Source: Gammaproteobacteria bacterium (lineage in GTDB: Bacteria > Pseudomonadota > Gammaproteobacteria > PS1 > Pseudothioglobaceae). From it: a DNA stretch of 64,000 nucleotides. Positions 29,333-56,229 of this stretch are shown here, in pieces. The translations under genes and the position numbers were made by a program. The stretch is taken from contig OZ244244.1 in assembly GCA_965217125.1 (NCBI GenBank), forward strand, positions 719,358 to 783,357, given 5' to 3'. How positions within the stretch are numbered: position 1 is the stretch's first letter; each line of letters begins with the position of its first letter. The notes beneath the pieces are model-generated. The model did no database searches. It was not told where the DNA came from and worked only from the letters and a program-made list of their open reading frames with translations.

Positions 29333-29867
29333 CCTTTTGCATGCTCCAAACAGGCATGCGCGCAGCAAGCGTAAAAACAATCATCAGCGCTATCATCCAA
29401 TACAACACTAATGGAATTTCCACAATTGACCAATGCTGTGCATAAGCAGGAAATTCCCTCCAAGCTAAGGCGCTAAAGGTGTAATAACTGACGCTAGCCA
29501 TAAGCCATTGCACACTGACAGTGCTGATAATAATAGCTGCATTTTTTAAGATATTTTCCTCAATTTTCAGTGTATTGAGGTATTTTCCCATCCAAAAAAC
29601 ACCGTAATAAGTCAGTGGCAAAATGCTATAAGCAGGGGTGATACAGTTAGCACCAACTCCTTGATGCACAATGGCGTAATTATCAATCGCAATAGCGCTG
29701 ATAATAATCGACAAAGCCACCCAAAACTGGCGAAAATACACCCCAGCGATAAATAAAGCAGGAATGGTGAAATCAGGCAAATGCACCACAGATGCCAGCC
29801 AGTTGTCATGCCCACGAGTGGCAATCATTAAAATAATAGCAATGCTTAAAAATAGTATATTTTTCAT
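29322..29867 (-). CDS. Six-TM membrane protein, putative BtuM-like cobalamin transporter (context-based)
   Basis: 181 aa with about 6 hydrophobic helices and a single Cys in GANCITPAY. It sits between a TonB-dependent receptor and cobO in a riboswitch-controlled operon. The family assignment was not verified. Confidence 0.4.
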   Translation of the reverse strand: MKNILFLSIAIILMIATRGHDNWLASVVHLPDFTIPALFIAGVYFRQFWVALSIIISAIAIDNYAIVHQGVGANCITPAYSILPLTYYGVFWMGKYLNTLKIEENILKNAAIIISTVSVQWLMASVSYYTFSALAWREFPAYAQHWSIVEIPLVLYWMIALMIVFTLAARMPVWSMQKDVG

Positions 29868-30631
29868 AGTTTTACCTCGGTTTTACAAAAGTTAATAAAG
29901 CGTTGCGCATCTGCAACGATATAGGGGGTTAATTTATTGAGTTGATTAAAATGTTCGGCAATTTGCAAATAATCAACTTTGTATTCGTGTGCTGCTAAAT
30001 TTCTGACATGGCGGTATTTTTCCCATCTTTGCGTGCTTTCGATAACGCCATTTTTTTCAAAAAAAGCTAATATTTTTAAAAAATATTCATCTTTTTGCTT
30101 TAAGGCAAAGGCACAATGACGCATAGCACTTGCCAAAACATCTTGCAATTTTGAAAATTTTTCATTTAGTGCTGATAATTTTGTAAATAAATCAATATTG
30201 TTTTTATTTTTTGACAAAAATCCATCATCAAGTGGAAAATTTAGGTTTTTTATGACAGCTGTTAAAAAATAAATATTGCGTTCAATGGCTTCTAATTTTT
30301 CAACTAAATGCTGTTTTTTTAAGGCTTCTTTGGTTTTTTCCATATTTAACTCCACGGCATCAAATTTTGCCAACTGTTCAAAAGTGCTTAATTTTTTGCC
30401 ACTCACAACATACAAAATATCAAAAGGCAAATACAAAACTTGTTCTAATTTGTCTTTAATTTGCGATTGAATTATAGAGTCAATCTGTTTATCAGACTCA
30501 ATAATTAAATCAATATCGCCACCTTTTTTATCATCCTCAAGGCGCGAGCCAAACAAATAAACTCTTGCTTCACGGCTGTTTGCTGTAACCGTTTGAAGAA
30601 TTACTTTTATTTGTTCAGCAGTTAGTCTCAT
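29864..30631 (-). CDS. Fused minimal nucleotidyltransferase (MNT) plus HEPN(DUF86-like) protein
   Basis: N-terminal LFGSRLEDDKKGGDIDLII (GS...DxD Pol-beta NTase signature). C-terminal HVRNLAAHEY (R-x4-H HEPN motif). 4-nt overlap with the downstream gene. Confidence 0.7.
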   Translation of the reverse strand: MRLTAEQIKVILQTVTANSREARVYLFGSRLEDDKKGGDIDLIIESDKQIDSIIQSQIKDKLEQVLYLPFDILYVVSGKKLSTFEQLAKFDAVELNMEKTKEALKKQHLVEKLEAIERNIYFLTAVIKNLNFPLDDGFLSKNKNNIDLFTKLSALNEKFSKLQDVLASAMRHCAFALKQKDEYFLKILAFFEKNGVIESTQRWEKYRHVRNLAAHEYKVDYLQIAEHFNQLNKLTPYIVADAQRFINFCKTEVKL

Positions 30632-36838: not shown

Positions 36839-36947
36839 TTTTATTAAATTCTGCTTAGCTGTTGAGATTGTAGCGTTTTTTGGTGGTAAAATTGAGTATT
36901 TAAAAGCACTTGCACAGTTGAAGTGATATTTATAATGGAGTAGGTTA

Positions 36948-39581
36948 ATGAGCACAACAATAGATGAGTATTCAATTTTTGCCAATGGCTCATGTTGGCT
37001 AAAAACTGATTTTCACCTTCATACTAAAGCAGATAAAGAATTTAAGTATTCTGGGGATGATAATTCTTTTAGCAGTGATTATGTTAATAAATTAAAACAG
37101 CAGAGTATTAATATTGGCATAATTACCAATCACAATAAATTTGATTGGAATGAGTATAAAGCACTGAAAAAGAAAGCAAAAAGAGAAGAAATATTGTTAT
37201 TGCCAGGTGTTGAATTGTCAGTTAATGATGGTGCAAATGGCATCCATACATTAGTAGTTTTTTCTGAGCAATGGCTAGAAAATGGCAATGATTATATCAA
37301 TCAATTTTTGGGTGTAGTCTTTGAAGGGAAAACACCTGCTCAATATGAACAAGAAAATGGACGAAGTTCTTACAACCTTATAGATACTATTAAAAAATTG
37401 AATGGCTATCATAAAGATTATTTTCTTGTTTTTGCCCATGTAGAGCAAAATAGTGGCTTATGGCATGAGCTTGATGGGGGACGTATTGAGGAACTTGCTA
37501 CAAATAAATACTTCAAACAGCGCACACTAGGTTTTCAAAAAGTACGCACTAACGATAAACGAACTAAAGTTAAAGAATGGTTTAAAGACTGGTATCCTGC
37601 CGAATTAGAAGGCTCGGACAATAAATCAATAGAGCAAATCGGCAAGAATGCTAAAGAAACTTGGTTAAAAATAGGTGATTTTACCTTTGAGGCTATCAAA
37701 TACGCTTTAGCTGACCATGCTAGCCGCGTTGCTAATGAACAGCCACAAAACTGCCAGCATTCGCACATTAAAAGCATCTCATTTGAAGGCGGTGTTTTAG
37801 ATAAACAACAAATTGATTTTTCCCCTGAATTGAATTCATTAATCGGCATTCGCGGTAGCGGTAAATCTTCTATTGTTGAGGCAATTCGTTATTTACTTAA
37901 CATATCTTTTGGCGATAAAACCATCGATAAAGAATATAAAGATTCATTAGTTGCACATACACTAGGCAGTGGAGGCAAGGTTATCATAGCAGCAGTGGAC
38001 AAGCATGGGCAGGATTATAATATTAGCCGCATATTAAATGAGCAGCCAGAAGTATTTATTGATGGTGAATTGCAGATTGGTATTTCTATTCGGGAAACTA
38101 TTATCCATAAACCTATTTATTTTGGACAAAAAGACCTTTCCAGATCTGGTGAGGGCTTTGAAAAAGATTTGGTAGAAAAATTATTAGGTGATAAATTAAC
38201 TGATATTAGGCGGCAGATAAACAATCAAAAAGCAGTCATTAGTCAGCAATGCGACAAATTAAACTCGCTAAGCAATATTGATGAAAAAATCACAGAAAAT
38301 ATAGACAAGCAAAAAGATGCGCAATATAGGCTGAAAATATTTCAAGACAATGGCATTGAAGATAAATTACAAAAACAAACTGATTTTAATACAGATGATA
38401 AAAAAATAAAAATTATTATCAATAGTATTAATGAGTATAAAAACGCCTTAACAGAAGTGATTAACCAGTATGAAGATGAGTTAAAAAACCATTGCTCCTA
38501 TCAATCAAAACAAAATAAAGCCTTCTTTTCCAAATTTTTTGATATTTATCAGATTGAATTAAAAGCCTTTGATAATATCAAGATAGAGGTTACTAAAATA
38601 AGAGAGCAATTGGCTAAGTTGCAAGATAAATCAACAGTGTTTTCTAACTTAAAAAAAGAGCAATTAAACCAATTTGCACAGGTGCGTAGAGAATTAGAGG
38701 CTGATTTAAAAACACAAGGCAAACAGTTAAATTTAGAAGAGTTTCCTAAATTGCAAAGAACTATTGAAACCACTAAACAATTGTTAGAGTCATTGAGTAA
38801 AGAAAGCAAAAAAACCACTGTCATCAAATATAATCTAATTATAAACTTGTCTAAACTTAATGATCTTTGGCGCCAAGAATATAAACTCATTGAAGCAGAA
38901 CTTGTACAAATTAATCAGAACCATACTGCATTACAAATCAGTAGCGAATACAAAGGGGATAAGGACGCATTTTTAGAGTATTTTAAAAGGATTTTCAGAG
39001 GTAGTCATATTCGAGAAAATAATTTGCAAAAGATAGTCAGCGATTATGCCGATTTTACCGCTATTTATCAGGACTTAAATAATGTTAAAGCACTGGCAAA
39101 GGTAGAAATCTTTGAACAATATTTTACTGATAATATAAAAAAGTTATTAAATTGGCAGGTGCCTAACAAGTTTGTTATTAAATATCACGGGAAAGAATTG
39201 CAAAATCACTCTTTAGGGCAAAGAGCATCGGCTTTAATTTTATTTGTTTTGAGTCAAAAAGAAAATCATTTAGTGATGATTGACCAACCTGAAGATGATT
39301 TGGATAATCAAACCATTTATGAGGATGTTATTAAACTAGTGCGCAAACTAAAACCAAAAACTCAATTTATTTTTGCAACCCATAATGCCAATTTTCCCGT
39401 ATTAGGTGATTCAGAACAAATTCATGCTTGTGAATATTCAGACGAGTCTATGAAAATAAAAAGCGGCAGTATAGATTCTCCTATTATTCAACAAGAGATA
39501 GTCAATATTATGGAAGGCGGCGAAGATGCTTTTAACAAACGAAAGGAAATTTACCAGATATGGAAACCTCAGAACTCTTAG
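36948..39581 (+). CDS. PHP-domain phosphoesterase fused to an ABC/SMC-type ATPase (architecture like the single-gene defence system Ppl)
   Basis: PHP motifs DFHLHT, ITNHN, PGVELS, FAHVE. Walker A GIRGSGKSSIVEAIRYLL, a long K/E/Q-rich coiled-coil-like insert, signature-like HSLGQRASAL, Walker B HLVMIDQPEDDLD, H-loop FIFATHNAN. Confidence 0.6.
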   Translation: MSTTIDEYSIFANGSCWLKTDFHLHTKADKEFKYSGDDNSFSSDYVNKLKQQSINIGIITNHNKFDWNEYKALKKKAKREEILLLPGVELSVNDGANGIHTLVVFSEQWLENGNDYINQFLGVVFEGKTPAQYEQENGRSSYNLIDTIKKLNGYHKDYFLVFAHVEQNSGLWHELDGGRIEELATNKYFKQRTLGFQKVRTNDKRTKVKEWFKDWYPAELEGSDNKSIEQIGKNAKETWLKIGDFTFEAIKYALADHASRVANEQPQNCQHSHIKSISFEGGVLDKQQIDFSPELNSLIGIRGSGKSSIVEAIRYLLNISFGDKTIDKEYKDSLVAHTLGSGGKVIIAAVDKHGQDYNISRILNEQPEVFIDGELQIGISIRETIIHKPIYFGQKDLSRSGEGFEKDLVEKLLGDKLTDIRRQINNQKAVISQQCDKLNSLSNIDEKITENIDKQKDAQYRLKIFQDNGIEDKLQKQTDFNTDDKKIKIIINSINEYKNALTEVINQYEDELKNHCSYQSKQNKAFFSKFFDIYQIELKAFDNIKIEVTKIREQLAKLQDKSTVFSNLKKEQLNQFAQVRRELEADLKTQGKQLNLEEFPKLQRTIETTKQLLESLSKESKKTTVIKYNLIINLSKLNDLWRQEYKLIEAELVQINQNHTALQISSEYKGDKDAFLEYFKRIFRGSHIRENNLQKIVSDYADFTAIYQDLNNVKALAKVEIFEQYFTDNIKKLLNWQVPNKFVIKYHGKELQNHSLGQRASALILFVLSQKENHLVMIDQPEDDLDNQTIYEDVIKLVRKLKPKTQFIFATHNANFPVLGDSEQIHACEYSDESMKIKSGSIDSPIIQQEIVNIMEGGEDAFNKRKEIYQIWKPQNS

Positions 39582-40705
39582 AAATTATCGCCAGAGGCGA
39601 AGATAGCAAGCATCAATTTAAAGCTAACATTACTAATGAAACCTCATTAGCTCAAGAAATGATAGCCTTTAGTAATACGCTTGGTGGCATGATGATAATA
39701 GGCATATCAGATGATGGTGCGGTATCAGGCTTAACTCCTGAAAGTATAAAAAAACTAGACAATACTATTTCTAACGCAGCATCACAACAGATAAAACCAG
39801 CAATTAACCCTATAACTGAAAATATTGCATTAAATGACAGTTTAGTAACAGTGATACATATATTTAAAGGAATATCCAAGCCTTATATGGATAAAAACGG
39901 CGTAATTTGGGTAAAAAGCGGTGCCGATAAAAGGAAAGCCACTGCCAGAGAAGAAATTCAGCGTATGTATCAAAGTGCTGGCTTATTGCATGGTGATGAA
40001 ATTTTAGTACCCACTATGACAGTGGCTAATTTAGATGATAATGCTTTTTCTGACTTTTATGAAATACAATATGAAGAAAAATTAGAACAAAATTTACCCT
40101 TTAAGCAACTATTAGATAATTTGAATTTAAGTAGAGATGGCACACTTAATGTTGCAGGAGCTTTACTTTTTGGTAAAGATGTGGCATTAAAATTACCCGC
40201 TTTTATTGTTAAATGTGTTACTTATCCAAATGCTGATATTGATGAAGATAATTATATTGATAGTCAAGATATGACAGGAATATTAGAAAAAGTTTTTGAC
40301 GATACACTTGGATTTATATTAAGGAATGTAGAAAGGAAGCAGCAAAATCAAGGTGTAAATTCACTGGGTAAATTGGCTATTCCAGAAATAGTTTTTGAGG
40401 AGTTGATTGTAAATGCCTTAATTCATCGTGATTATTTTATTTCTGCACCTGTAAGGGTGTTTATTTTTAGCGATCGTATTGAGATTATTAGTCCAGGACA
40501 CCTTCCAAATAACTTGACAATTGAAAATATAAAACAAGGAAATTCAAATATAAGAAACCCAATTTTAGCATCATTTGCCACTAAAATTCTTCCGTATAGA
40601 GGCTTAGGCAATGGAATTAGAAGAGCTATAAAAGCTTATGAAAAAATTGAATTTATTGAAGACCGAGATGGAAATAGCCTAAAAGTTGTTATTTACAAAC
40701 AATAA
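39560..40705 (+). CDS. Schlafen/AlbA_2 domain plus RecG-like ATP-binding (HATPase_c_4-type) protein
   Basis: N-terminal GEDSKHQFKAN......EMIAFSNTLGGMMIIGISDDG (AlbA_2 pattern). C-terminal ELIVNALIHRDY...PGHLPN. Start overlaps the upstream gene by 22 nt. Confidence 0.65.
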   Translation: METSELLEIIARGEDSKHQFKANITNETSLAQEMIAFSNTLGGMMIIGISDDGAVSGLTPESIKKLDNTISNAASQQIKPAINPITENIALNDSLVTVIHIFKGISKPYMDKNGVIWVKSGADKRKATAREEIQRMYQSAGLLHGDEILVPTMTVANLDDNAFSDFYEIQYEEKLEQNLPFKQLLDNLNLSRDGTLNVAGALLFGKDVALKLPAFIVKCVTYPNADIDEDNYIDSQDMTGILEKVFDDTLGFILRNVERKQQNQGVNSLGKLAIPEIVFEELIVNALIHRDYFISAPVRVFIFSDRIEIISPGHLPNNLTIENIKQGNSNIRNPILASFATKILPYRGLGNGIRRAIKAYEKIEFIEDRDGNSLKVVIYKQ

Positions 40706-40909
40706 ACCAATAACCAACATATCAGCATAGTCAAACAAACACTCAAAAGACAAAAAATTAGCTGATTATACTTCGCTTATTACTCATTGAGGCGATTAAA
40801 AGCAGGGTGGAATGAGTAAAGTTAACTTTGCAACCAGTGCATATTTTTGATATTTAGATGGCTTGGACAGGTTAAAATAAATATATTTTATAATTTAGTT
40901 ATATTTACA

Positions 40910-42937
40910 ATGGGCTTTAACCAACAATTAGAAAATCTACTAAAGACTTGCGATAAGTTTATTGATTCAGAAAGTGGTAATTTACTAAAACAAAATATCA
41001 GGCACAGTGCCGAGCAATTTGATGATGAATTGATTGCACTATTGTTTAAAAATCAAGCAACTAAAAGCCATTTTTTTAAGGCTGTGGGCAAGACAACGGT
41101 TTTTAATTATCGCAAATTTGTTGATTATATTGATGATAAAAACTTTTTGTTAGATAGTTACACCAAATTTTCTAATAAAGTCGGTTTAACCATTAGCAAT
41201 AAACACATCAAAGCCGTTGATAAAGTGGCACTTGATTTTCCTTTTAAGGATTGCATTTTAGAGGGCGGACAAAGCAAAGACTGCGAAAAACGCAAAGAGA
41301 TATTTTTTAATGAAGTTTTAGCAAAAGATGAAATTAACCGCTTATTGGATAAAAAAGTTATTACAAATGCTACAAAATACACTCAAAAAAGCATTAGCAA
41401 TAAAGTCCGTTTTAATCGTGATGAAAACGGCATAATTAAAGACAATCTCATCATTAAAGGCAATAATCTTTTAGCGCTACACAGCCTAAAAAGCAACTTT
41501 GCTGGCAAAGTCAAACTAATTTATATTGACCCGCCGTATAACACCGGCAACGATAGTTTTAATTACAACGATAATTTTAATCATTCAACTTGGTTGGTTT
41601 TTATGAAAAATCGCTTGGAAGTAGCAAAGGATTTGTTAAGTGATGACGGAGTTATTTTTGTGCAGTGTGATGATAACGAACAGGCTTATTTGAAGGTGTT
41701 GATGGATGAGGTTTTTGGAAAAGATAAGTTTTTATCAACTGTTTATATTCAAGTTAGATATGAAGGAAAAACATTGGTTGAGGATATGGATTTTCAAAAA
41801 CTTATCGAGAGTATCCATATGTACAAAAAAGGAGTATCAGCAAAGTTAAACAAAGACACGGAACAATATAATTATGATAAATTTGTTTGGGACATACAGG
41901 AAATTGGCGACCATACGACCTTAGAAATGAGCGGGAAAAAAGTTGAAATTTTCAAGAAAGGTAATTACAAAATAATAAAGAAAAAATCTAATAAAGACCT
42001 TTTAAAAGAAATCTGGGCTTCTGGAAAAATATTAGACGGAAACTCTTCTGGTAGATTTTTTAGAGATAATATTGTTGGTAGAGATGTAGACGGACTAGAG
42101 ACTTTATATAAGGTATATGGCATTGGTGATGATAAATTTAATTTTAGATACTTTACTGGTCCAAAAAAGGCAAGTGCAACTAAAGGAAAATATTATCAAG
42201 GCGTTCCTCTTAATAAACTTGATAAAAGTAATACAATAAAATTCCTGCCCATCTCTAATTTTTATAATTTTTCTGGCTCTTTTGGTAACTGTAGAAATGA
42301 AGGAGAGGTTAATTTTAGATCTGGAAAAAAACCAGAAAAACTAATCCAAAGAATAATAGAATTAGCCACCAAAAAAGGCGATATAGTTCTTGATTATCAC
42401 TTAGGCAGTGGCACAACTTGTGCAGTAGCCCATAAAATGGAACGGCAATATATCGGCATTGAACAAATGGATTATATTGAGGATATTGCTGTCAAGCGAA
42501 TGCAAAAAGTCATCGGCAAAACCATTAAAAAAGACGGTGAATTATTGGAATCTGTAGATTTTGATACTGGCGGCATCTCTAAAAGCGTTGATTGGCAGGG
42601 CGGCGGTGAATTTATCTATTTTGAATTAGATAAATACAACCAAACATACATTGACAAGCTAAACGCCATTAAATCAGGGCATGCAAGCAGCAAGACCATC
42701 GAGCAGTTATATGATGAAATAGCCAAACACGCTTTTTTAAATTATGATGTCCAAAGCAACAAACTTTTAGCCAATAAAGCCGATTTTGAAGCATTAAGTC
42801 TAAATAAACAATTAGAATTTTTATTCTCAATCCTCAACAAAAACCAACTATACAAAAACTTATCAGAGATTGACGATAAAGATTTAAGCGTGGATGATAA
42901 AACTAAAGCACTAAACAAAGGATTTTACAAGGAGTAA
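40910..42937 (+). CDS. mod: Type III R-M Mod-like N6/N4 DNA methyltransferase (beta class)
   Basis: Motif IV LIYIDPPYNTGND precedes motif I DIVLDYHLGSGTTCAVAHKMERQYIGIE, with a variable middle region. ATG 40910 is preferred over the TTG 40847 of the ORF track. Confidence 0.8.
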   Translation: MGFNQQLENLLKTCDKFIDSESGNLLKQNIRHSAEQFDDELIALLFKNQATKSHFFKAVGKTTVFNYRKFVDYIDDKNFLLDSYTKFSNKVGLTISNKHIKAVDKVALDFPFKDCILEGGQSKDCEKRKEIFFNEVLAKDEINRLLDKKVITNATKYTQKSISNKVRFNRDENGIIKDNLIIKGNNLLALHSLKSNFAGKVKLIYIDPPYNTGNDSFNYNDNFNHSTWLVFMKNRLEVAKDLLSDDGVIFVQCDDNEQAYLKVLMDEVFGKDKFLSTVYIQVRYEGKTLVEDMDFQKLIESIHMYKKGVSAKLNKDTEQYNYDKFVWDIQEIGDHTTLEMSGKKVEIFKKGNYKIIKKKSNKDLLKEIWASGKILDGNSSGRFFRDNIVGRDVDGLETLYKVYGIGDDKFNFRYFTGPKKASATKGKYYQGVPLNKLDKSNTIKFLPISNFYNFSGSFGNCRNEGEVNFRSGKKPEKLIQRIIELATKKGDIVLDYHLGSGTTCAVAHKMERQYIGIEQMDYIEDIAVKRMQKVIGKTIKKDGELLESVDFDTGGISKSVDWQGGGEFIYFELDKYNQTYIDKLNAIKSGHASSKTIEQLYDEIAKHAFLNYDVQSNKLLANKADFEALSLNKQLEFLFSILNKNQLYKNLSEIDDKDLSVDDKTKALNKGFYKE

Positions 42938-42942
42938 CAATT

Positions 42943-43593
42943 ATGAAATATTCAGATACAATATCTCTAGATTGTCCGCATTGTCAAAGTAAGTGCCAAT
43001 TCATCATAGAAAATCAGGCTTATAGTACTTGTAAATCTGATGGTTTAATTCATTCAAGTTATGCTTGTACAAATTGTTTAGGAAAAGTCGTAACAAAATG
43101 GGGAAGGGCTAAAGATGAAACAACAATATTGTATAGTTGCATTCCACTTTCTGTAAAATATAAGCCAAGAATAGATTTGAATACCATTACCAATGAACAA
43201 GTTAAAAAAGATTTTCAAGAGGCTATATCTTGTTATAACAACGATTTACATAATGCCTGTATGATAATGGCACGGCGTGCTATTCAACAAGAAATGATGA
43301 CGATTAGCGAGGTTAAGGACGATGATAATTTATATAAACAAATAGAGTCAATGGGTATCTCGCAACAATTAAAAAATCTGTTAAAAAAGATTAAAAATTT
43401 TGGTAATTATGGTGCTCATCCTGATTTTTGTTTATTTGATGAAAATAAAGAAATTATTGAAGATGAGCAATTGTTTTCAAAATTAAGTTTAGAGTTTTTG
43501 GATAGATATTTTTCCGACCAATATGAAATTAATGCTTTGGTTAATTCTGCCCCTAAAAGCCAAAAAGAATCAGAAGCCACAAATAAAAAGTAA
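42943..43593 (+). CDS. DUF4145-domain protein with an N-terminal Cys-rich (zinc-ribbon-like) region
   Basis: CPHCQSKC...CTNC. Then FQEAISCYNNDLHNACMIMARRAIQQE...LLKKIKNFGNYGAHPD, the DUF4145 pattern commonly embedded in R-M loci. Confidence 0.65.
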   Translation: MKYSDTISLDCPHCQSKCQFIIENQAYSTCKSDGLIHSSYACTNCLGKVVTKWGRAKDETTILYSCIPLSVKYKPRIDLNTITNEQVKKDFQEAISCYNNDLHNACMIMARRAIQQEMMTISEVKDDDNLYKQIESMGISQQLKNLLKKIKNFGNYGAHPDFCLFDENKEIIEDEQLFSKLSLEFLDRYFSDQYEINALVNSAPKSQKESEATNKK

Positions 43594-43619
43594 AAAATGA
43601 GCGATAAATTTTTATTTGA
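43593..43619 (+). repeat. 27-nt direct repeat (copy 1) equal to the res start region
   Basis: aaaaatgagcgataaatttttatttga occurs at 43593-43619 and at 44328-44354. Copy 1 opens only a 19-codon ORF (MSDKFLFDSIKEEFGRVAS*). Confidence 0.9.
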
Positions 43620-43698
43620 TAGCATAAAAGAAGAGTTTGGCAGAGTTGCGAGCTGATATTGATTATCAGTATATTTCTTCAATTAAACAAAGATTTTT

Positions 43699-43968
43699 AT
43701 GAAAACTGAAATTATCAAAACCCTAACGACTGACTTTGAAAGCTCATCTTATAAAACAGATGAGGGGATGGAATTTTGGCTGGCAAGGGATTTACAGCAT
43801 TTATTGGGTTATAGTAAATGGGACAATTTTAAGAATGTTATTTCAAAAGCAAAAACAGCTTGTGAAGTGAGTGGGCATAATATTTCTGAACATTTTCCCG
43901 ATGTCGGGAAAACGATTAGAATGCCTAATGGGGCAGAAAAAGAAATCATTGCTTTTGCCCAGACTTAA
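43699..43968 (+). pseudogene. N-terminal fragment of a DinD-like (DNA-damage-inducible protein D) gene
   Basis: FWLARDLQHLLGYSKWDNFKNVISKAKTACEVSGHNISEHF resembles the DinD N-terminus. It is only 89 aa where full-length DinD-like proteins are ~270 aa. Confidence 0.6.
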
Positions 43969-43988
43969 CAATATGATGATGGGAATCC

Positions 43989-44342
43989 ATGAAGATTAAA
44001 TTAGAAACTACTGAATTAACTAAGTTTGCAAACTTTGTGATGTTTCAAACGGCTACTGGTAAGGCTAATATTGATGTTTTTTTTGCTGATGAGACACTGT
44101 GGCTAACGCAAAAAAAGATAGCATTATTGTTTGAAACGACACCGCAAAATATTACCATACATCTTAAAAATATTTTTATGACAACAGAGCTACTTGAAAA
44201 AGCAACTTGTAAGGATTTCTTACAAGTTCAACAAGAAGGTAATAGAGAGGTTTCACGGCAGTTTAAATATTACAATCTATCGGATTATGTTTCTGATTTT
44301 GATAAACAAATTAAACAAATAAGCAAGAAAAATGAGCGATAA
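43989..44342 (+). pseudogene. Diverged N-terminal fragment of a RhuM-family gene
   Basis: IDVFFADETLWLTQKKIALLFETTPQNITIHLKNIF...EGNREVSRQFKYYNL parallels aa 20-95 of the full RhuM copy at 55151, then breaks off. Its tail overlaps the res start. Confidence 0.65.
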
Positions 44343-44354
44343 ATTTTTATTTGA
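44328..44354 (+). repeat. 27-nt direct repeat (copy 2) at the true res start
   Basis: Identical to 43593-43619. Confidence 0.9.
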
Positions 44355-46866
44355 AGAATTAAATACGCTGGCTGAATACGGTGCAATAGTTGATAAAAAA
44401 TATCCTTTTATTGATGATAATCTTAATCCAAAATTAGCATTAAGAGATTATCAAAAACAAGCCTTTAATCGCTTTTATTTTTATTTTGAAAGCGATAAAA
44501 AACCTAATAGCAATGTCCACTTAGCTTATCACATGGCAACAGGTAGCGGTAAAACTGTAGTGATGGCAGGGCTTATTCTTTATCTTTATGAACATGGTTA
44601 TCGTAATTTTTTGTTTTTTGTTAATCGTGGGCAAATTGTTGAAAAAACCAAAGATAACTTCATCAATCAACAATCTAATAAATATCTTTTTAACGATAAA
44701 ATTATTATTGATAATAAGCAAGTAGAGCTTAGGGCGGTTGATAATTTTTCTTATTCTTCGGGCGATGATATAAACATTTGTTTTACCACTATTCAAGAGC
44801 TTTTTAGTGATTTTCATAATGAAAAAGAAAACTCATTAACACTTGAAGATTTTAAAGAAAATAAAATAGCCTTAATTGCTGATGAGGCTCATCATATTAG
44901 TGCTAGCACTAAAAAACAAATTGATTGGTTAAAACCCAGCTGGGAAAATACCGTAGAAAAAATCTTTAAAGAACACCGCCAAGACAATATTTTATTAGAA
45001 TTTAGTGCCACCATAGAATTAGATAACAGAGCCGTAAAAGAAAAATACTTAGACAAGATTATTTACCAATATGATTTACAAAGTTTTGTTAAAGATGGTT
45101 TTAGTAAAAAAATTGATTTATTCAAAAGCGATACCAACAAAAAAACACGCATTGGACAGGCGTTAATTGCCTCAATTTATCGCGAGCAGGTGGCAATTAA
45201 ATATGGCTTAAATATCAAGCCTGTGGTTTTATTTAAGTCTGCAAAAATAGCACAAAGCATACAAAACCAAGTTGATTTTCATAAGCAGATTGAAAATTTA
45301 TCGGCAGCAGATTTAGCAAGCATTAAAGACAATAGCAATATTGAGGTTTTGCAAAATGCGTTTAAATTTTTCATTAAGCAAGAAATCAGCCTTAATGCCT
45401 TAGCGGATAAAATAAAACACGCTTTTGATGAGAAAAAATGCTTATGCACCAATAATGATAAGGAATTAGAGTTGAATCAAAAACGCCTCAATAATTTAGA
45501 AGATAATAATAATGCCATCAGGGCGATATTTAGCGTTGACAAGCTCAATGAGGGCTGGGATGTGTTAAATTTGTTTGATATTGTGCGATTATATGAAGGG
45601 CAGAGTCGTGGCGGCTCACAAGGCAGAAAAATAAGCAATAAAACTGTTAGCGAGGCACAATTAGTGGGTAGAGGGGCGAGATACTGCCCATTTATAATAA
45701 AATTTGACGATGACAAGTATAGGCGCAAGTTTGATGACGATATTAAAAATGAATTAAGAATATTAGAGGAATTGTATTTTCACAGTAGCAATGAAAGCCA
45801 ATATATTAGTGAAATTAAGCAAGCATTAATAGAGCAAGGCTTAATGGATGAAAAAGGCAAAGAGCCTGTTAAATTACCCCTTAAATTAAAAGACAAACCC
45901 AAGTTAGCCAATAAATTAATTTTTAAGAATCAGCGCAGGGAAAAATCTTACAAACATATTAAAAATTTTGCAGATTTTGGCATGGTTAAGACTAATTTTA
46001 ATTATGATGTTCATAGTGGCAAAGGTGCATTGATTGATGTTTTTGATAATCAAGAAGATAGGCAAAAAACCTGTAAAAATGATGAAAATTTTATTAATTT
46101 TGTTGGGGTAAATATCGTTAAAAATGCGATATTAAGCAATGATTTTTTTAGCTTTGCTAATCTTAAAAAATCTTTCCCTAATTTGTCATCTATCAATGAA
46201 TTTATAAGCAGTAATGATTATATGGCGCAGTTAGGCATAACCATTAGCAATAAAACTGATGATTTGCAGCCTAAAATTAAACTTAATGTCGCTTTATCAG
46301 TGCTGAATATACTGCAACAAGAAATTAAAGGCAACATTACTAATTATCAAGGCACAAAAGAGTTTGATGGCTTTAATGTTGGCAAGATATTTAATGAAAA
46401 AACGCTATTAATTCCACGCGACAAACAAAAAACAATATTAGATATTCCTCATGATTGGTTTGTATTTGAAAAGTTTTACGGCACCAGTGAAGAAAAATCT
46501 CTTATTGAGTTAATTGCTAGATTGATAAAAGATGTGCAAAGCCAATATAGCGATATTTATTTAATGAGGAATGAGCGACATTTTGCCTTATATGATTTTG
46601 AACAAGGCAGGCGATTTGAGCCAGATTTTGTTTTGTTAGCAAAAAGCAATAAGAGTATTAATTATCAATTTTTTATAGAGCCAAAAGGCAGGTATTTACA
46701 AGCACAAGACAAATGGAAGCAGGATTTTTTACTGGATATTAAGCAAAAAGCCAAGACAACATTAGAATACACTAATCAAAATTATAAAATTATCGGATTA
46801 GAGTTTTATAATAAAGAGGATGAGAATATCTTTAAATCTAAGCTTTCTGCGGAATTAAGCATTTAA
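44332..46866 (+). CDS. res: Type III restriction enzyme Res-like helicase-nuclease
   Basis: Walker A HMATGSGKTVVMAG, DEAH box LIADEAHHIS, helicase C motifs (VDKLNEGWDV, VGRGAR), and a C-terminal PD-(D/E)xK-like FEPDFVLL...FFIEPKG. Confidence 0.8.
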   Translation: MSDKFLFEELNTLAEYGAIVDKKYPFIDDNLNPKLALRDYQKQAFNRFYFYFESDKKPNSNVHLAYHMATGSGKTVVMAGLILYLYEHGYRNFLFFVNRGQIVEKTKDNFINQQSNKYLFNDKIIIDNKQVELRAVDNFSYSSGDDINICFTTIQELFSDFHNEKENSLTLEDFKENKIALIADEAHHISASTKKQIDWLKPSWENTVEKIFKEHRQDNILLEFSATIELDNRAVKEKYLDKIIYQYDLQSFVKDGFSKKIDLFKSDTNKKTRIGQALIASIYREQVAIKYGLNIKPVVLFKSAKIAQSIQNQVDFHKQIENLSAADLASIKDNSNIEVLQNAFKFFIKQEISLNALADKIKHAFDEKKCLCTNNDKELELNQKRLNNLEDNNNAIRAIFSVDKLNEGWDVLNLFDIVRLYEGQSRGGSQGRKISNKTVSEAQLVGRGARYCPFIIKFDDDKYRRKFDDDIKNELRILEELYFHSSNESQYISEIKQALIEQGLMDEKGKEPVKLPLKLKDKPKLANKLIFKNQRREKSYKHIKNFADFGMVKTNFNYDVHSGKGALIDVFDNQEDRQKTCKNDENFINFVGVNIVKNAILSNDFFSFANLKKSFPNLSSINEFISSNDYMAQLGITISNKTDDLQPKIKLNVALSVLNILQQEIKGNITNYQGTKEFDGFNVGKIFNEKTLLIPRDKQKTILDIPHDWFVFEKFYGTSEEKSLIELIARLIKDVQSQYSDIYLMRNERHFALYDFEQGRRFEPDFVLLAKSNKSINYQFFIEPKGRYLQAQDKWKQDFLLDIKQKAKTTLEYTNQNYKIIGLEFYNKEDENIFKSKLSAELSI

Positions 46867-46911
46867 TAAAAAATTCAATTAAAATCACATAATCTAACAC
46901 ACAAACTTTAA

Positions 46912-47376
46912 ATATTCAGAAAAGAGCCGTTTAAGTTGTCATGACCCAAGGTTTTTATGGAAAATAAACTAACTTTAAAAGATGAGTTAACAGAATTTTT
47001 ACTTTACAACACTCCTAACGGTGAGGTGAGGGTAGAAATACTGTTGCATAATGAAACAATATGGCTGCCACAAAAACGCATCGCGCAGCTTTTTAATGTT
47101 GCTACTAATACGGTAAATGAGCACTTAAAAAATATTTATCAATCACAAGAATTGACGCAAGATTCAACTATTCGGAAATTCCGAATAGTTGGACAAGAAG
47201 GCGACAGAGAAGTAGTTAGATTAACTAAATTTTATAACTTAGATGCGATTTTATCAGTTGGCTATCGGGTAAATTCGCAGCAAGCAACTCAATTTAGAAT
47301 TTGGGCGACTAAAACCTTAAAAGAATACATTATTAAAGGTTTTGCGATGGATGATGAGCGTCTTAAAAATGGGCGT
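46912..47376 (+). repeat. ~465-nt direct repeat, left copy (rhuM upstream region plus first 140 codons)
   Basis: Near-identical to 55094-55570. The protein level shows 1 aa difference in 138 (T69 vs K69). Confidence 0.9.
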
Positions 47377-47427
47377 ATTTATGTAAAAGGCAATTTAAGT
47401 CGTTATTTGATTCCTAATGTTTTTTAA
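46957..47427 (+). pseudogene. Truncated RhuM-family gene (5' duplicate of 55151..56170)
   Basis: The first 138 aa are essentially identical to the full copy. It diverges after ...DDERLKNGR into a 17-aa unrelated tail. Confidence 0.85.
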
Positions 47428-47432
47428 GAATA

Positions 47433-49706
47433 ATGAAAACAAATATTAGCCTTTATTTAGACAAAGTTATTGAAAAATCAAACAATAAAATCAATCGTGA
47501 TTTTGATTTTTTAAATATTGACAGGGTTAATATTTTTCTGACTAAACAGGTATTAGAAAGAGAATGTAACTTATGGTTTAAGGTTAATAACGAGTATTTG
47601 AACAAATTTTATGAAGCTATTATTTTTGCCACTTCTGTCTATTTTTTTGAAAAAAATTATTGTGAAGACAAAGAAACAAAACCAAAAAAAGGCGATAAAT
47701 ATAAAAACAAAAGAAGGCAATTTAAGGTATTAAGCATTGAATATGATGATAGCCGTCAGTGCGAGATCGTTAAATTACAGGGAATAAGCAGGGGGAATTC
47801 TGCAATAGTATCTCTTAATCTCAAAGATTTAGATGATAGTTATACAAAATTATCTGATAAGGCGACAAAAAACACCAAAATACCAATCAAATCGATGCTC
47901 AATTTTTTTAAAAAAACATTAAATATAACAGAACAAATACCGTCTTTTCCTCATAAATTCGCCATTGTTACTCAAAAAAATGATTTTGAAAATTGTTTTA
48001 GGATATTAGATAAAAAAATATTTCCTTATATTTATATTGCAGATAGCGGGCATGAAACACCTAATTTACCTTTAGCAGATTGTATGTTTTATGTAGCATT
48101 AAGTTATGAAACTATTAAAACATATATTTTTGATGAGGATATTAAAGTAGAAAGTCTTATTTTTATTGGCAATAAATACAATCATCAAATCCAACAAGAT
48201 ATTAATAGAGAATATTTTAAACGAGCAATTTTCGTTGGCGAACAAGAACCAGATGTGGAATGTTTGAAATGGTGCTGGACTTTACCAGAATATCAATATT
48301 TTGAGAATTTAATACAAGGTGAAGTTAAAATTACTGAAGTCAAGAATGCAGAATTAACACAATTAACCCAAGGTTTTACAAATTATCTTCAAACATTAGA
48401 AAAAGATTATTATGTTGATTTAAAAAGATTATTTACCTATATTTCCTATACTTATCCCTTGGTTGTTTTGACAGATGATAGTCGCTTGCAAAATAGAGTA
48501 GAGGATTTATTACATAGTTTTAAAATAAAATCAGAGCAAATATTGGGCGAAAAATTTAGTAGTACTGGCGAGGATTGCACAGAAATTCATCAACAATTAG
48601 TTAGGGATTATGGTGTTATTTTAAAGCAATTTAATTGGGCCAATAATGCCAAGACTAAAGCCCTGAAACAACAAAAAGAAACTGATTATTTATTAGTGCC
48701 AGAACGCCAAACCTTAGAGGTTTGGAAAAGTGAAATTAAAAAACTTAACTGGCAAAAAGTAAAAATTATCTCCTTTCGCAGCTTAAAAATAATACCAAAA
48801 CAAAGCAATATTACCGTTTTATCAATCAAAGATTATGATTTTTATTGCCATTTAAAAAATAGTAATCATCATATTTATTGGCTGCTTTATGACCAAGAAC
48901 AACGATGCTATGATAATTTTACTAAACGATACGATAATGAATTAACCCAAGAACTTAACTCAAAAGATAGGAAGAAATTAACAGGTATAGAGTATCCTAA
49001 TGAAATTAAAACAGAAGGAATTGATGATTTAATAGGCAGGATTTGGGGCAATGAAACGCATGCAAGAGAACATACAATTACTTATCAAGATCATATTGAT
49101 AAAAAGATTGTTTTTACTGATAATACGGCAGTAGAATTATCAGCAAATAGTAGTGTTATATGGATTAACAATAAAAATAAACCTCGAAAGTATAAAGTAG
49201 CTGATTTAACTATTGGCGATAAAATAAGAATTTATGAAAATCAACACAAGGAAGTTTTATTTGATTCTATTATCCAAAATGACACAAATGGTAAATTTAA
49301 TAAAATTTTAGAGTGTTCTAAATTATGGAAAAAAATTCTAACTGATTATTGTGCTGATGATAAAACAGGCAAAATAAATGAAATTGCTGATTTATGCGAT
49401 GTTGTATTTTTAACGGCTGAGGGTTGGTTAAAAAAATCAAAAACTAAATTCCCTAAAAACATCAAGCCATTAAGAAATATTTTAGGTGCAAATTATGGTG
49501 AAATTTATCAAAATAACAAGCACTATAATAGTATTATGATTGCATTAGGTAGAGATTTAAGCGATGAAGTATCTGATTATATTATTAGAAAGCAAAAAGG
49601 TGAGTTATTGAGTAAATTTGATGATGTTTTAATTAACAAAATTTCAGAACACAATATGCCAATTAAAACTATTAAAAAAATAGAAATTATAGATAGAGAC
49701 AGATAA
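47433..49706 (+). CDS. Large protein of unknown function (757 aa); DrmE-like by position and size only
   Basis: No motif recognised by eye. Stop overlaps the drmA-like ATG by 1 nt (TAATG). Class 2 DISARM loci carry a domain-less drmE directly upstream of drmA. Confidence 0.35.
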   Translation: MKTNISLYLDKVIEKSNNKINRDFDFLNIDRVNIFLTKQVLERECNLWFKVNNEYLNKFYEAIIFATSVYFFEKNYCEDKETKPKKGDKYKNKRRQFKVLSIEYDDSRQCEIVKLQGISRGNSAIVSLNLKDLDDSYTKLSDKATKNTKIPIKSMLNFFKKTLNITEQIPSFPHKFAIVTQKNDFENCFRILDKKIFPYIYIADSGHETPNLPLADCMFYVALSYETIKTYIFDEDIKVESLIFIGNKYNHQIQQDINREYFKRAIFVGEQEPDVECLKWCWTLPEYQYFENLIQGEVKITEVKNAELTQLTQGFTNYLQTLEKDYYVDLKRLFTYISYTYPLVVLTDDSRLQNRVEDLLHSFKIKSEQILGEKFSSTGEDCTEIHQQLVRDYGVILKQFNWANNAKTKALKQQKETDYLLVPERQTLEVWKSEIKKLNWQKVKIISFRSLKIIPKQSNITVLSIKDYDFYCHLKNSNHHIYWLLYDQEQRCYDNFTKRYDNELTQELNSKDRKKLTGIEYPNEIKTEGIDDLIGRIWGNETHAREHTITYQDHIDKKIVFTDNTAVELSANSSVIWINNKNKPRKYKVADLTIGDKIRIYENQHKEVLFDSIIQNDTNGKFNKILECSKLWKKILTDYCADDKTGKINEIADLCDVVFLTAEGWLKKSKTKFPKNIKPLRNILGANYGEIYQNNKHYNSIMIALGRDLSDEVSDYIIRKQKGELLSKFDDVLINKISEHNMPIKTIKKIEIIDRDR

Positions 49707-52700
49707 TGGCAAAAGAACAGATAGAGATATTTACAAAGACTATTACAGAACAATTATTAGGACCTGGGTCTGATGTGTTTTATGGTGATAATGAGCATGA
49801 AATTATTGGCGAGTTTCCACTTAGAAGATACTATACAGGTGTTTTATTTCCTAACAAAATAACAAATAACCAAGAGGAAAAAGACACAAATATAGCAGAG
49901 GATTCTGGTGAAAACTTAGCAATTTATGAAACTCAAGACGATAACGAAACTGAACAAGGAGACGAGCAAGAACCAAAAAAAGATATAAAAGATGATGAAA
50001 AAGAAGACACTGGCTTGTATAATCATTTTCACCCATCCGATATGGGCATTAGTTTTTGCGTGGATAAACAAGTTGAAACTTTAGCGGTTAATTTTTCTTT
50101 TGCAACTTATAAACAAGCCAAACAAACTGAAGTTAAAGTTAATATGGCAGTAAATGCTTATCATACTTTGATAGATGATAAATATAGTTTTCCTTTTAAA
50201 GATATTTTGCAATATGAAAAGATTGACGAGCAAAACGGTCATTTATCATTAGCAAGGAAATTGAAAGGAGATAAAAAAGGTAAGGCGAGAACCAAAGAAT
50301 ATCAAATATTTGATGATTGGCAAAAATCAATAGATACAGAACATAGAGAAATTCTACGCCCATTATATGAGAAATTTAATAAAATTATTGGCAGATTGTG
50401 GCAAAGAACAGCCGTCACTATTACTGAAAATATTAAATTAGAGGCTAATAATGAACCTACATTATTTGCTGATTTTCAAAAAGCAGGTTGGACACTTAAA
50501 ACTTACCAAAAAGATAAGCAAAAATATATTAAAGTCCAATTAGTAAACTTATTTGAAGCCATTCCTAATAATCAATTTTCTAATAGCAAAGAGCAGTTAA
50601 ATGAATCATGTTTATTCCAAGCAGAAATTAGCATTCATTCTGATAAATTGTTATCTTATAAGCCTTATGACAGCAATCAAAATGATTTTGATAAAGAAAA
50701 ACAAACGCTAGATTTTCTATATAGGGAAGTTAAGCATTTTGCCATAGGTCACCATTGTAGCGCACTCTGGGAGCCGTTAGAAAAACCCGATAAAGTAATA
50801 ACATCTTTTCTGCCTACCTATGATTTAAAAAGTACCGAAACCAAAATTAAAAATTTTGTTAATATTCCATTATTTGATTTATCTATTTGGGGCAAAAATC
50901 AAACAGAAATCATCCAAGGTTTAGATAGTTTTATTAATAAATACCTTGGTTGGATTAAAAAACAAAAGCAAGACAATGATGCTAATACTGATATTGGCAA
51001 AAATATTATTAGCAATTTAGAGACAACTGCTAATAGGTTAAAAGAGGGAGTGCAATTATTAGCCAACAATCAGCAATTATTTAAAGCCTTTCAATATGCT
51101 AATACAGCGATGTTATTGCAATTTTCACTAAAAGATGATTTTTACCAAAACATACAAAAAGCAGAAAAAACACAATGCCCTTGTAGTGAAGAGCAAAAGC
51201 AAAAAATAACTTATCATCCCTTTCAATTGGCTTTTTTCCTGCTAAGTTTAGAGAGCAGTATTAACCCCCAATCAAACCACCGGACGGAAGCAGTTGATTT
51301 AATTTGGTTTCCAACAGGCGGTGGTAAAACCGAAGCCTATTTAGCGGTGGCTGCTTTGACTGTTATCTGGCGAAGAATGACTAATGAAAAATATCAAGGC
51401 GTATCCGTTATTATGCGTTACACTTTGCGATTATTAACCGCACAGCAATTTGAAAGAGCAACCAAACTCATTACCGTTTTAGAATATTTACGACAACAAT
51501 TTGAGAGTGATTTAAAGTCTGAAAAAATTAGTATTGGTTTATGGATTGGTAGCTTATCAACACCTAATAAGCTTGAAGATGCTAAAAAAGCAACAAAACA
51601 AATAACCGAAAAAGGCAGTGACGCTAATAAATTTCAAATTGACAACTGTCCATGGTGTAATGAAAAATTAATCAAAGAAAATGGGACAACCCACACACAT
51701 GCTTTTGACGCAAGAAGTCGAGATTTAAAAATAAAATGTCTTAATAAGGGCTGTTGTTTTTCTAAAAGTAGTGGCTTGCCTGTGCAAGTTGTTGATGAGG
51801 TTTTATATAATCAACCACCGACTTTATTATTTGCGACTGTTGATAAGATAGCAAGGTTAAGTTGGCAAGAAAAAGGGCATCAATTTTTTAATAGTTTGGG
51901 CGATGAAAACGATTTACCGCCTGATTTAATTATCCAAGATGAATTGCACTTATTAACAGGCCCCTTAGGCTCAATTGTGGGTTTATTTGAAGCGGTCATT
52001 GAGGATTTATGCACTAAAAATAACAGCAGCCCTAAAATTATTGCCTCTACTGCGACTACTCGCAATACATCAGAACAAGTTAAACAATTATATGGTAATA
52101 GGGCGGTCAATATTTTTCCACCATCTGGACTAACCTATGATAATAGTTTTTTCTTTAAAGAATCCAAAGACAGCAACCGTCAATATTTGGGTTTTATGCC
52201 CACAGGTAAAACAGGAATAGATACTCAAATCCACTTATTAACTGTATTGTTTATTGCTCGGCTAAAAACTTATCTAAAAAATGAAGAACAAAATGACCCT
52301 TATTGGACTTTGGTGTCTTATTATAATAGTTTAAGAAGCGTGGGTAGGATGTCTAATAAAGTTGGCGATGAAATACAAACACTTATTAAGCAAACCCAAA
52401 AGCGCTTACAACTAGCTCAGTATGGTTTTAATTATTTTGGTTTAAAAGGCAGAACTAGAGAATTAACCTCTAGGATTGACAGTGCAAAAATCAAACAAAA
52501 TTTAGACCAATTGGAACAAAATTTTGCACTAGATAAGCCCAATGATAATGGTTATCAGAATGTTAAAAAAGAAGTTGTGGATTTAGTATTAGCAACTAAT
52601 ATGCTCTCGGTAGGCATTGATATAGATAGATTAAATATGATGATGATTAATGGTATGCCCAGAAATACCGCAGAATATATTCAAGCTTCATCACGGGTGG

Positions 52701-55031: not shown

Positions 55032-55093
55032 TCAATAATTCACAACCCAATAACAGCCAAAATCAAGTATATATAAGAACGCACAGATTTGAG

Positions 55094-55570
55094 ATATTCA
55101 GAAAAAGAGAGAGCTAAACTGTCATGACCCAACATTAAACAAAGATTTTTATGGAAAATAAACTAACTTTAAAAGATGAATTAACAGAATTTTTACTTTA
55201 CAACACTCCTAACGGTGAGGTGAGGGTAGAAATACTGTTGCATAATGAAACAATATGGCTGCCACAAAAACGCATCGCACAGCTTTTTAATGTTGCTACT
55301 AATACGGTAAATGAGCATTTAAAAAATATTTATCAATCACAAGAATTAAAGCAAGATTCAACTATTCGGAAATTCCGAATAGTTGGACAAGAAGGCGACA
55401 GAGAAGTAGTTAGATTAACTAAATTTTACAATTTAGATGCGATTTTATCAGTTGGCTATCGGGTAAATTCGCAGCAAGCAACTCAATTTAGAATTTGGGC
55501 GACTAAAACTTTAAAAGAATACATTATTAAAGGTTTTGCGATGGATGATGAGCGTCTTAAAAATGGGCGT
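55094..55570 (+). repeat. ~465-nt direct repeat, right copy (start of the intact rhuM)
   Basis: See 46912-47376. The upstream parts share atattcagaaaa(a)gag...gtcatgacccaa...tttttatggaaaataaac. Confidence 0.9.
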
Positions 55571-56170: not shown

Positions 56171-56229
56171 TGGTGGTTTGGGTGTTGTTTATGCTAAAAT
56201 GCAGATTTTGCCGAATTGTTTAGTTAAAT

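Follow-up and report, generated by a model that had tools for sequence, protein, structure and literature searches.

An overlapping trlF–trlG gene pair opens a defence island in a gammaproteobacterial genome: a candidate two-gene anti-phage module of the Ppl superfamily

The DNA examined here, hereafter the window, is a 64,000-nucleotide stretch of contig OZ244244.1 (assembly GCA_965217125.1, positions 719,358–783,357, forward strand), from a gammaproteobacterium of the family Pseudothioglobaceae. Two of its open reading frames (ORFs), both on the + strand, are found at 36948–39581 (877 amino acids, ATG start) and 39560–40705 (381 amino acids, ATG start). They are trlF and trlG, an operon family that was already named in Photorhabdus laumondii in 2020. 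The trlG ATG (39560) begins 22 nucleotides before the end of the trlF stop codon, so that the two genes overlap at 39560–39581, and its TG is shared with the codon (A-TGG) for Trp872 of TrlF, a residue that is invariant in an alignment of 42 TrlF homologues (57–77% identity). Because of this overlapping start, synthesis of TrlG is probably coordinated with that of TrlF. Scanning the surroundings of the pair for promoters and terminators gave no informative signal (28 promoter-like sites, with 20 expected).

In TrlF, a PHP phosphoesterase is fused to an SMC/Rad50-like ABC ATPase, an assignment based on the ORF, the NCBIfam model TrlF_fam_ATP and the homologues. The PHP domain occupies approximately residues 15–260 (36990–37727, +), as delimited from the translation, invariant columns, secondary structure of the model and alignment to true Ppl, and contains the motifs DFHLHT (21–26), ITNHN (59–63), GVELS (87–91) and FAHVE (162–166). 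The ABC head is split. Motifs, alignment, model and Foldseek matches place its N-terminal half at approximately residues 273–392 (37764–38123, +), with the Walker A motif GSGKSS (303–308) and the Q-loop residue Q394, and motifs, alignment and model place its C-terminal half at approximately residues 662–868 (38931–39551, +). This second half includes the SLGQRA signature (LGQRA, 756–760), the Walker B motif MIDQPEDDLD (777–786), with DQPED at its core, and the H-loop ATHN (810–813; H812). Between the halves lies a long antiparallel coiled-coil insert, approximately residues 404–657 (38157–38918, +), seen in the helices of an AlphaFold2 model and in Foldseek matches.

The AlphaFold2 model of TrlF (predicted local distance difference test score, pLDDT, 81.5) has an N-terminal PHP barrel, the split ABC head and a coiled coil of about 250 residues that is built from helices 404–440, 444–467, 471–517, 524–589 and 598–657. 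Its best Foldseek matches are the heads of SMC, MukB, JetC, Rad50 and RecF/RecN. A reading of this locus made from its letters alone, here the sequence-only reading, had reported the two ORFs and their 22-nucleotide overlap, the PHP and ATPase motifs and a coiled-coil-like insert, and each of these was recovered. In the 42 homologues, the motif residues that it quoted are invariant or at least 90% conserved. The invariant or near-invariant positions of the PHP part are H23, H25, H62, E89, H100, H164 and D224, which are candidate metal ligands judging from the alignment, and those of the ATPase are G303–S308, Q394, S755/G757–A760, D779–D786 and H812. Invariance of the PHP ligands throughout the clade indicates selection on the nuclease or phosphoesterase activity of TrlF. 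K226 occupies the position of a His in Ppl, making the last PHP motif D-x-K in TrlF vs D-x-H in Ppl.

TrlF homologues are numerous (>5,000 at E ≤ 1e-10). Pfam returned only weak ABC/SMC matches (AAA_21, SMC_N, AAA_23) for the window protein, and a PDB sequence search found no close match for TrlF or TrlG and turned up no Ppl structure. NCBIfam divides these proteins into three sister families, TrlF, Ppl and Spaf_1101. The window protein passes the cut-off of NF045780, 'TrlF family AAA-like ATPase' (555.9 bits, cut-off 350), with residues 13–870 aligned to the entire profile (1–944 of 944), and fails those of NF042955, 'anti-phage protein Ppl' (166.4 bits, cut-off 1000), and of the Spaf_1101 family (169 bits, cut-off 475). 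Its best PADLOC match is Ppl (PDLC02208), which is weak and in two pieces (123 bits). Three TrlF proteins each scored about 120 bits on this model, and a plasmid gene annotated ppl, used as a positive control, scored 1788 bits over its full length. Because the protein falls below the curated cut-offs while the true Ppl scores 1788 bits, it is not Ppl, and that identification was rejected. The PADLOC search thus went against the Ppl label of the sequence-only reading, and what stands of 'Ppl-like' is a full-length, collinear homology with the same PHP and ABC architecture. When aligned pairwise, TrlF and true Ppl share 23% identity over the PHP domain and N-terminal half of the head and 28% over the C-terminal half, and the Ppl profile is covered at positions 1–878 of 882. 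By sequence comparison, the large protein is a distant homologue of Ppl and a member of the TrlF family.

TrlG (39560–40705, +) is a stand-alone Schlatpase, the supradomain name given in 2026 to AlbA_2 combined with PF13749 (bioRxiv 10.64898/2026.05.29.728809). Pfam, Foldseek and the architecture of the Photorhabdus TrlG all support this. Pfam matches above the curated cut-offs were obtained for SLFN_AlbA_2 (PF04326; residues 14–127, E 1.4e-20, 74.4 bits) and HATPase_c_4 (PF13749; residues 296–364, E 4e-16, 59.2 bits). The Schlafen/AlbA_2 domain, also supported by motif comparison, is encoded at 39599–39940 (+), and the GHKL ATPase core, defined by HATPase_c_4 and invariant columns, spans approximately residues 273–364 (40376–40651, +). 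The sequence-only reading was right about an N-terminal AlbA_2/Schlafen domain and an ATP-binding region containing IHRDY (residues 288–292), but the region that it called RecG-like is a GHKL ATPase. No helix-turn-helix (HTH) domain was found in the window TrlG by Pfam. Foldseek matches of the TrlG model include the bacterial AlbA_2/HATPase_c_4 protein 3lmm, the nuclease domains of human SLFN5, SLFN11, SLFN13 and SLFN14, and the tRNase domain of SAMD9.

The GHKL part of TrlG is highly conserved among the TrlF partners described below, with E281 and N285 of the N-box kept in 70/71 and 71/71, respectively, along with the HRDY, SPGHLPNNLT and glycine-rich YRGxGxG boxes. E281 and N285 correspond to E314 and N318, the ATP-Mg ligands of the Schlafen-Argonaute RzAgo, in which the GHKL domain's binding of ATP leads to tetramerization, and the tetramer assembles the Schlafen domains into a mammalian-like nuclease that cuts tRNA (bioRxiv 10.64898/2026.05.29.728809). 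In RzAgo, the nuclease motif reads E-x4-(D/E)-x-K, with an S-A-F-A-N box after it (bioRxiv 10.64898/2026.05.29.728809), and the same motif is conserved across 5,930 prokaryotic Schlafens (PMC13056530). TrlG retains the second box (A36-F37-S38-N39) and departs from the catalytic motif, which reads E14-D15-S16-x-x-Q19-x-K21. Gln19 is present in 69/71 TrlG partners and the EDxxxQxK form in 74/77 metagenomic relatives, whereas five AlbA_2 paralogues in the same loci that are not TrlF partners have the canonical Glu at this position. With Gln as the second acid clade-wide, the Schlafen domain may cut RNA or may only bind it, and both readings stand; the invariant Asp15 may compensate for Gln19.

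The Photorhabdus operon provides the only phenotype. Spontaneous mutants of P. laumondii DJC that grow at 36 °C were found to be mutated in a 'recG-like' gene, which was renamed trlG, and the putative operon trlR-trlF-trlG, in which trlF was annotated as a histidinol phosphatase, was called the 'temperature restriction locus' (TRL) (Hapeshi et al. 2020, PMC7554251). In that study, about 20 independent trlG mutations, in both domains (AlbA_2, 14–128; HATPase_c_4, 298–365), relieved the growth arrest at 36 °C, deletion of the operon gave the same relief, and the operon complemented; trlF mutants were never recovered. Thus, trlG is required for the arrest and both TrlG domains matter (PMC7554251). 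A shift to 36 °C induces transcription of the operon, which is located between polA and dsbA with no mention of a restriction-modification (R-M) neighbour and was also noted in Vibrio (12/1,218 Vibrio cholerae genomes), Pseudomonas and the Yersinia ruckeri plasmid pYR3 (PMC7554251). On RefSeq plasmids of Y. ruckeri and of the IncC group, the first of the two overlapping genes is annotated 'TrlF family AAA-like ATPase' and the second 'RNA-binding domain-containing protein'. The residue numbers of the Photorhabdus TrlG mutations match only at S16, V35 and A36 in close relatives of the window TrlG; the C-terminal mutations, apparently shifted by about 2 residues, would map onto P316, S329, N333 and G352. 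The searchable literature yielded no paper that ties TRL to Schlafen, to Ppl or to defence against phages.

One genome per species was scanned for loci with a TrlF relative, and 77 were retrieved (48–77% identity), in Methylococcales, Desulfobacterota, Acidobacteriota, Planctomycetota, Chlorobiota, Spirochaetota, Bacillota, Caldisericota, Thermotogota, Omnitrophota and others. A full-length TrlG relative (48–79% identity) starts within the last codons of trlF in 73/77 loci. As the remaining four are contig ends or tiny fragments, all 73 testable loci are paired, and pairing is obligate on the TrlF side. The overlap is 13, 19, 22, 28 or 31 nucleotides in 72 loci and 73 nucleotides in one, and the frame relation of the two genes is identical in all 73. 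Among 54 complete pairs, the pairwise identities of TrlF and TrlG are correlated (Mantel r = 0.90), with 0/999 permutations as high. The proposal of the sequence-only reading that the two genes function together is borne out by this retention and co-divergence, and chance adjacency of two single-gene systems was ruled out on the same grounds. No conserved third gene was found, as no other cluster of flanking ORFs, at settings of 70 amino acids and E 1e-8 that could miss small proteins, was present in more than 8 of the 77 loci. Starting from TrlG in metagenomes, TrlF was directly upstream in 61/75 loci with upstream room.

More distant relatives of TrlF occur without a partner. TrlF-family genes of 22–30% identity are found on Klebsiella plasmids without TrlG, and no AlbA_2 gene adjoins a true ppl carried by a Klebsiella plasmid, ppl genes being solo in this genomic test. 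Since several TrlF/Ppl relatives lack a partner, the superfamily consists of solo branches and one obligately paired branch, and as true Ppl and the other relatives are solo, TrlF–TrlG represents a two-gene branch of the Ppl superfamily. The sequence-only reading had suspected a two-gene variant not covered by the single-gene description of Ppl; a two-gene branch does exist, but it had already been described as trlF-trlG (PMC7554251). A TrlG-type protein encoded on a metagenome contig (L083 6001–7410) is 70% identical to the window TrlG, and has the motif E-D-S-K-H-Q-F-K and an extra C-terminal Fic-like_C winged-helix domain. Its gene stands by itself, with no trlF, flanked by pglX and pglZ in a BREX locus that also includes a gene for a small SMC_N/AAA_15 ATPase. 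The gene that precedes trlG in Candidatus Electrothrix scaldis encodes 722 amino acids in the genome record (L085 5860–8028) and 896 in a read-based assembly of the same locus (L086 2395–5085); the mismatch could reflect a miscalled start site or an N-terminally truncated trlF.

The pair occurs in islands of defence genes and on mobile elements. In the window it opens an insert of approximately 19 kb (36839–56229) between pheA and a cluster of hisC-like, tyrA and aroA genes, it lies immediately upstream of a type III mod gene, and DrmA/DrmB-like genes are found in the same insert. At other loci it is located between PglX and PglZ/BrxL of BREX or adjoins methyltransferases, SNF2 helicases, DISARM, BrxH, Hma or Dpd-type genes; this profiling lists the 25 commonest neighbour models, and the share of defence genes was counted only in part. 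The Escherichia coli IncC plasmid pNDM102337 carries the pair within a type I R-M operon, HTH-hsdR-trlF-trlG-hsdS-AAA ATPase-hsdM (L078 1134–12181), in which the ends of trlF and trlG overlap the neighbouring genes, and a Tn7-like TnsD gene is just upstream. Among 5,426 complete E. coli genomes, 38 (0.7%) contain the hsdR-trlF-trlG-hsdS stretch at ≥99% identity, mostly in the chromosome. Across many phyla the distribution is patchy, with 50–80% identity, and the spread is horizontal. A search of phage genomes found no gene of the TrlG clade, only distant AlbA_2 proteins (24–29%).

In the window, the island interrupts an aromatic amino-acid cluster, with serC-like, serA-like and pheA genes to its left and the hisC-like aminotransferase, tyrA and aroA to its right, and from 38 kb onwards its G+C content is approximately 0.28–0.32, compared with 0.36–0.40 in the flanking genes. 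The type III R-M system (40847–46866) comprises Mod (696 amino acids, TTG start) and res (844 amino acids), separated by three small ORFs. These encode a DUF4145 protein (42943–43593) with a weak PADLOC match to PD-T7-4, an 89-amino-acid N-terminal fragment of DinD (43699–43968; positions 1–86 of 288) and a 117-amino-acid product without matches (43989–44342) whose ORF overlaps the start of res. Further along are a truncated RhuM gene (46957–47427; Pfam positions 1–70 of 252) and a full one (55151–56170), which bracket genes for a 757-amino-acid protein without a Pfam or PADLOC match (47433–49706), a DrmA-like helicase (49706–53215) and a DrmB-like DUF1998/MZB protein (53163–55031). DrmC and a dedicated methylase were not seen in this region (46957–56170), which looks like a DISARM-like core with an unknown first gene that has been inserted into, or has duplicated, rhuM. 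Outside the insert, a 255-amino-acid ORF on the - strand (29864–30631) matches NTP_transf_2/Polbeta (residues 11–80) and, weakly, a HepT-like RNase (175–233), and could be a fused MNT-HepT toxin-antitoxin.

We conclude that TrlF–TrlG is a mobile two-gene module of defence islands, most likely directed against phages or other invading DNA, a reading to which we assign a probability of roughly 55%. TrlF would be a single-chain nuclease-ATPase, in which a PHP head is joined to an ABC ATPase of the SMC/Rad50 type that bears a long coiled coil. Ppl has been reported to be a nucleoside triphosphate-inhibited 3'-5' exonuclease on single-stranded DNA that senses 3'-OH ends (PMC12904381). By homology, TrlF would be expected to bind DNA ends or single-stranded DNA, which may be the trigger, and to degrade it 3'-5' under nucleotide control. 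In TrlG, which may form a physical complex with TrlF, ATP at the GHKL domain would drive oligomerization and switch on the Schlafen domain, and the activated Schlafen domain would stop growth via RNA, most likely tRNA, the molecule that bacterial Schlafens cut in defence (PMC13056530).

Several observations weigh against this conclusion. The sole recorded phenotype is a temperature-dependent growth arrest, which its discoverers read as a physiological temperature switch (PMC7554251), and a search of the literature for a phage assay of TrlFG found none. With no trlF mutants among the suppressors, TrlF is either not needed for the arrest or its loss is not tolerated. TrlG may lack nuclease activity, given that 97% of the clade has Gln19 in place of the second acid of the Schlafen motif, and the TrlG model is of moderate quality (pLDDT 71.5). 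Tests in E. coli included Schlafen-histidine-kinase-type fusions, which may or may not have been TrlG-type or included TrlF, and the protective, tRNA-cleaving systems reported were the fusions with DUF262 and with an Ig-like domain only (PMC13056530). Finally, TrlG-type genes have no TrlF upstream in 14/75 metagenomic loci (19%), and IncF plasmids of E. coli carry TrlF-family genes (45% identity) that have no TrlG. Since solo relatives of both exist, TrlF and TrlG may each work alone.

Among the alternatives, the one that survives best is a PARIS-like or toxin-antitoxin-like arrangement, though we consider it improbable: TrlG would be the sole toxic effector, TrlF chiefly a sensor and restrainer whose ABC ATPase scaffold keeps TrlG inactive until a phage cue releases it, and the PHP nuclease secondary. 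It would fit the recovery of about 20 suppressors in trlG and never in the 2.3-fold larger trlF, if loss of TrlF is lethal or useless. The overlapping start suggests a fixed stoichiometry, and the pair is lodged within operons of BREX and type I R-M systems, as PARIS and PrrC are. The ATPase part of TrlF does match AriA of PARIS, but only weakly (E 1e-6 to 1e-10, including 6e-8 and 1.5e-6) and in generic ABC regions. Furthermore, a secondary role for the PHP nuclease sits poorly with ligands that are invariant across the clade, and solo TrlG-type genes occur without any restrainer.

Still less probable is a growth switch, in which TRL would sense heat or stress and halt replication or growth for the benefit of its own cell, with no role in defence. 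The only experimental phenotype speaks for it, as the operon is induced at 36 °C and mutants of trlG or of the operon grow at that temperature. However, arrest triggered by heat could equally be the autoimmunity of a defence system, and a patchy, horizontal distribution over many phyla, with presence in 12/1,218 V. cholerae genomes, fits such a switch poorly. The same holds for carriage on conjugative IncC plasmids, proximity to Tn7-like transposition genes and insertion inside BREX and R-M operons, and the window locus lacks the trlR regulator. It is equally doubtful that TrlG serves the adjacent R-M or BREX system, as a regulator that binds nucleic acids or as an accessory, and merely co-travels with TrlF, which would be an independent, Ppl-like single-gene defence: proteins with AlbA_2 and HATPase_c_4 are often annotated as regulators, the winged-helix TrlG-type protein has no TrlF with it in its place between pglX and pglZ, the nuclease may be inactive to judge from Gln19 and the window pair immediately precedes mod, but overlap in 73/73 loci and co-divergence at r = 0.90 are unexpected for independent neighbours, the flanking systems differ from locus to locus, the window TrlG has no HTH domain and the Photorhabdus operon, for which no R-M neighbour is mentioned, still arrests growth (PMC7554251).

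A more ambitious form of the anti-phage interpretation is possible but speculative. It holds that TrlF–TrlG is a widespread, unrecognized immune system in which the SMC-like PHP nuclease senses or degrades foreign DNA ends and is coupled to the Gln19-bearing Schlafen-GHKL protein, an arrest switch that would do without the canonical Schlafen catalytic triad and operate by RNA binding or through an altered active site that makes use of the invariant Asp15; the Photorhabdus arrest would be autoimmunity, and insertion into R-M and BREX operons would provide a back-up when restriction is blocked. The operon is common, with thousands of public homologues and carriage on NDM-carrying IncC plasmids as well as in 0.7% of complete E. 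coli genomes. In this obligate operon, two immune families that are under active study, the Schlafen tRNases and the Ppl-type PHP nuclease-ATPases, come together. If phage defence is its function, the temperature restriction of Photorhabdus is to be re-read as autoimmunity, the Ppl superfamily gains a two-gene branch, and the pair offers a test of whether a Gln-bearing Schlafen domain is a nuclease or a sensor.

PrrC is an ABC-like NTPase anticodon nuclease found inside a type I R-M locus. TrlF–TrlG resembles PrrC and PARIS in combining an ABC-type ATPase with an effector that is likely to target RNA, and in its recurrence inside R-M and BREX operons. It differs in that the TrlG effector is Schlafen plus GHKL, rather than the Toprim protein AriB that marks PARIS or the PrrC nuclease, and in that a PHP nuclease and a long coiled coil are part of TrlF itself. 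With SbcCD/Mre11-Rad50 and JetC of Wadjet, TrlF shares an SMC/Rad50-like head with a coiled coil and a metal-dependent phosphoesterase. In TrlF, however, a single chain holds both nuclease and ATPase, PHP takes the place of Mre11 or Toprim as the nuclease, the coiled coil is far shorter, and sequence similarity is confined to the ABC motifs.

The other three comparisons are with Ppl, with Schlatpase and Schlafen proteins and with the TRL operon. Ppl and TrlF have PHP motifs I–IV and a split ABC head with a long helical insert in common, but Ppl is solo with D-x-H as its last PHP motif, while the TrlF clade is always accompanied by TrlG and has D-x-K. Like the Schlatpase of RzAgo and the Schlafen nucleases, TrlG has both Pfam domains, the A-F-x-N box, the E and N ligands of GHKL and a fold resembling the human SLFN proteins. 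It is, however, a stand-alone protein of 381 amino acids paired with a nuclease-ATPase and not fused to a sensor, and Gln19 replaces the second acid that is described as conserved (bioRxiv 10.64898/2026.05.29.728809, PMC13056530). The TRL operon encodes the same two proteins in the same order, with TrlG domains at 14–128 and 298–365 compared with 14–127 and 296–364 in the window. In the window there is no trlR-like small regulator, as pheA ends 110 nucleotides before trlF with no ORF between them, the host is a different one with low G+C content, and the pair lies in a defence island and not between polA and dsbA. The temperature phenotype is on record for the Photorhabdus operon. The locus adds to the known, under-studied TrlF–TrlG family and is not a new kind of system; to that family our analysis contributes a placement in defence islands (BREX, type I R-M and type III R-M/DISARM-like), solo relatives and a Gln19 that is clade-wide.

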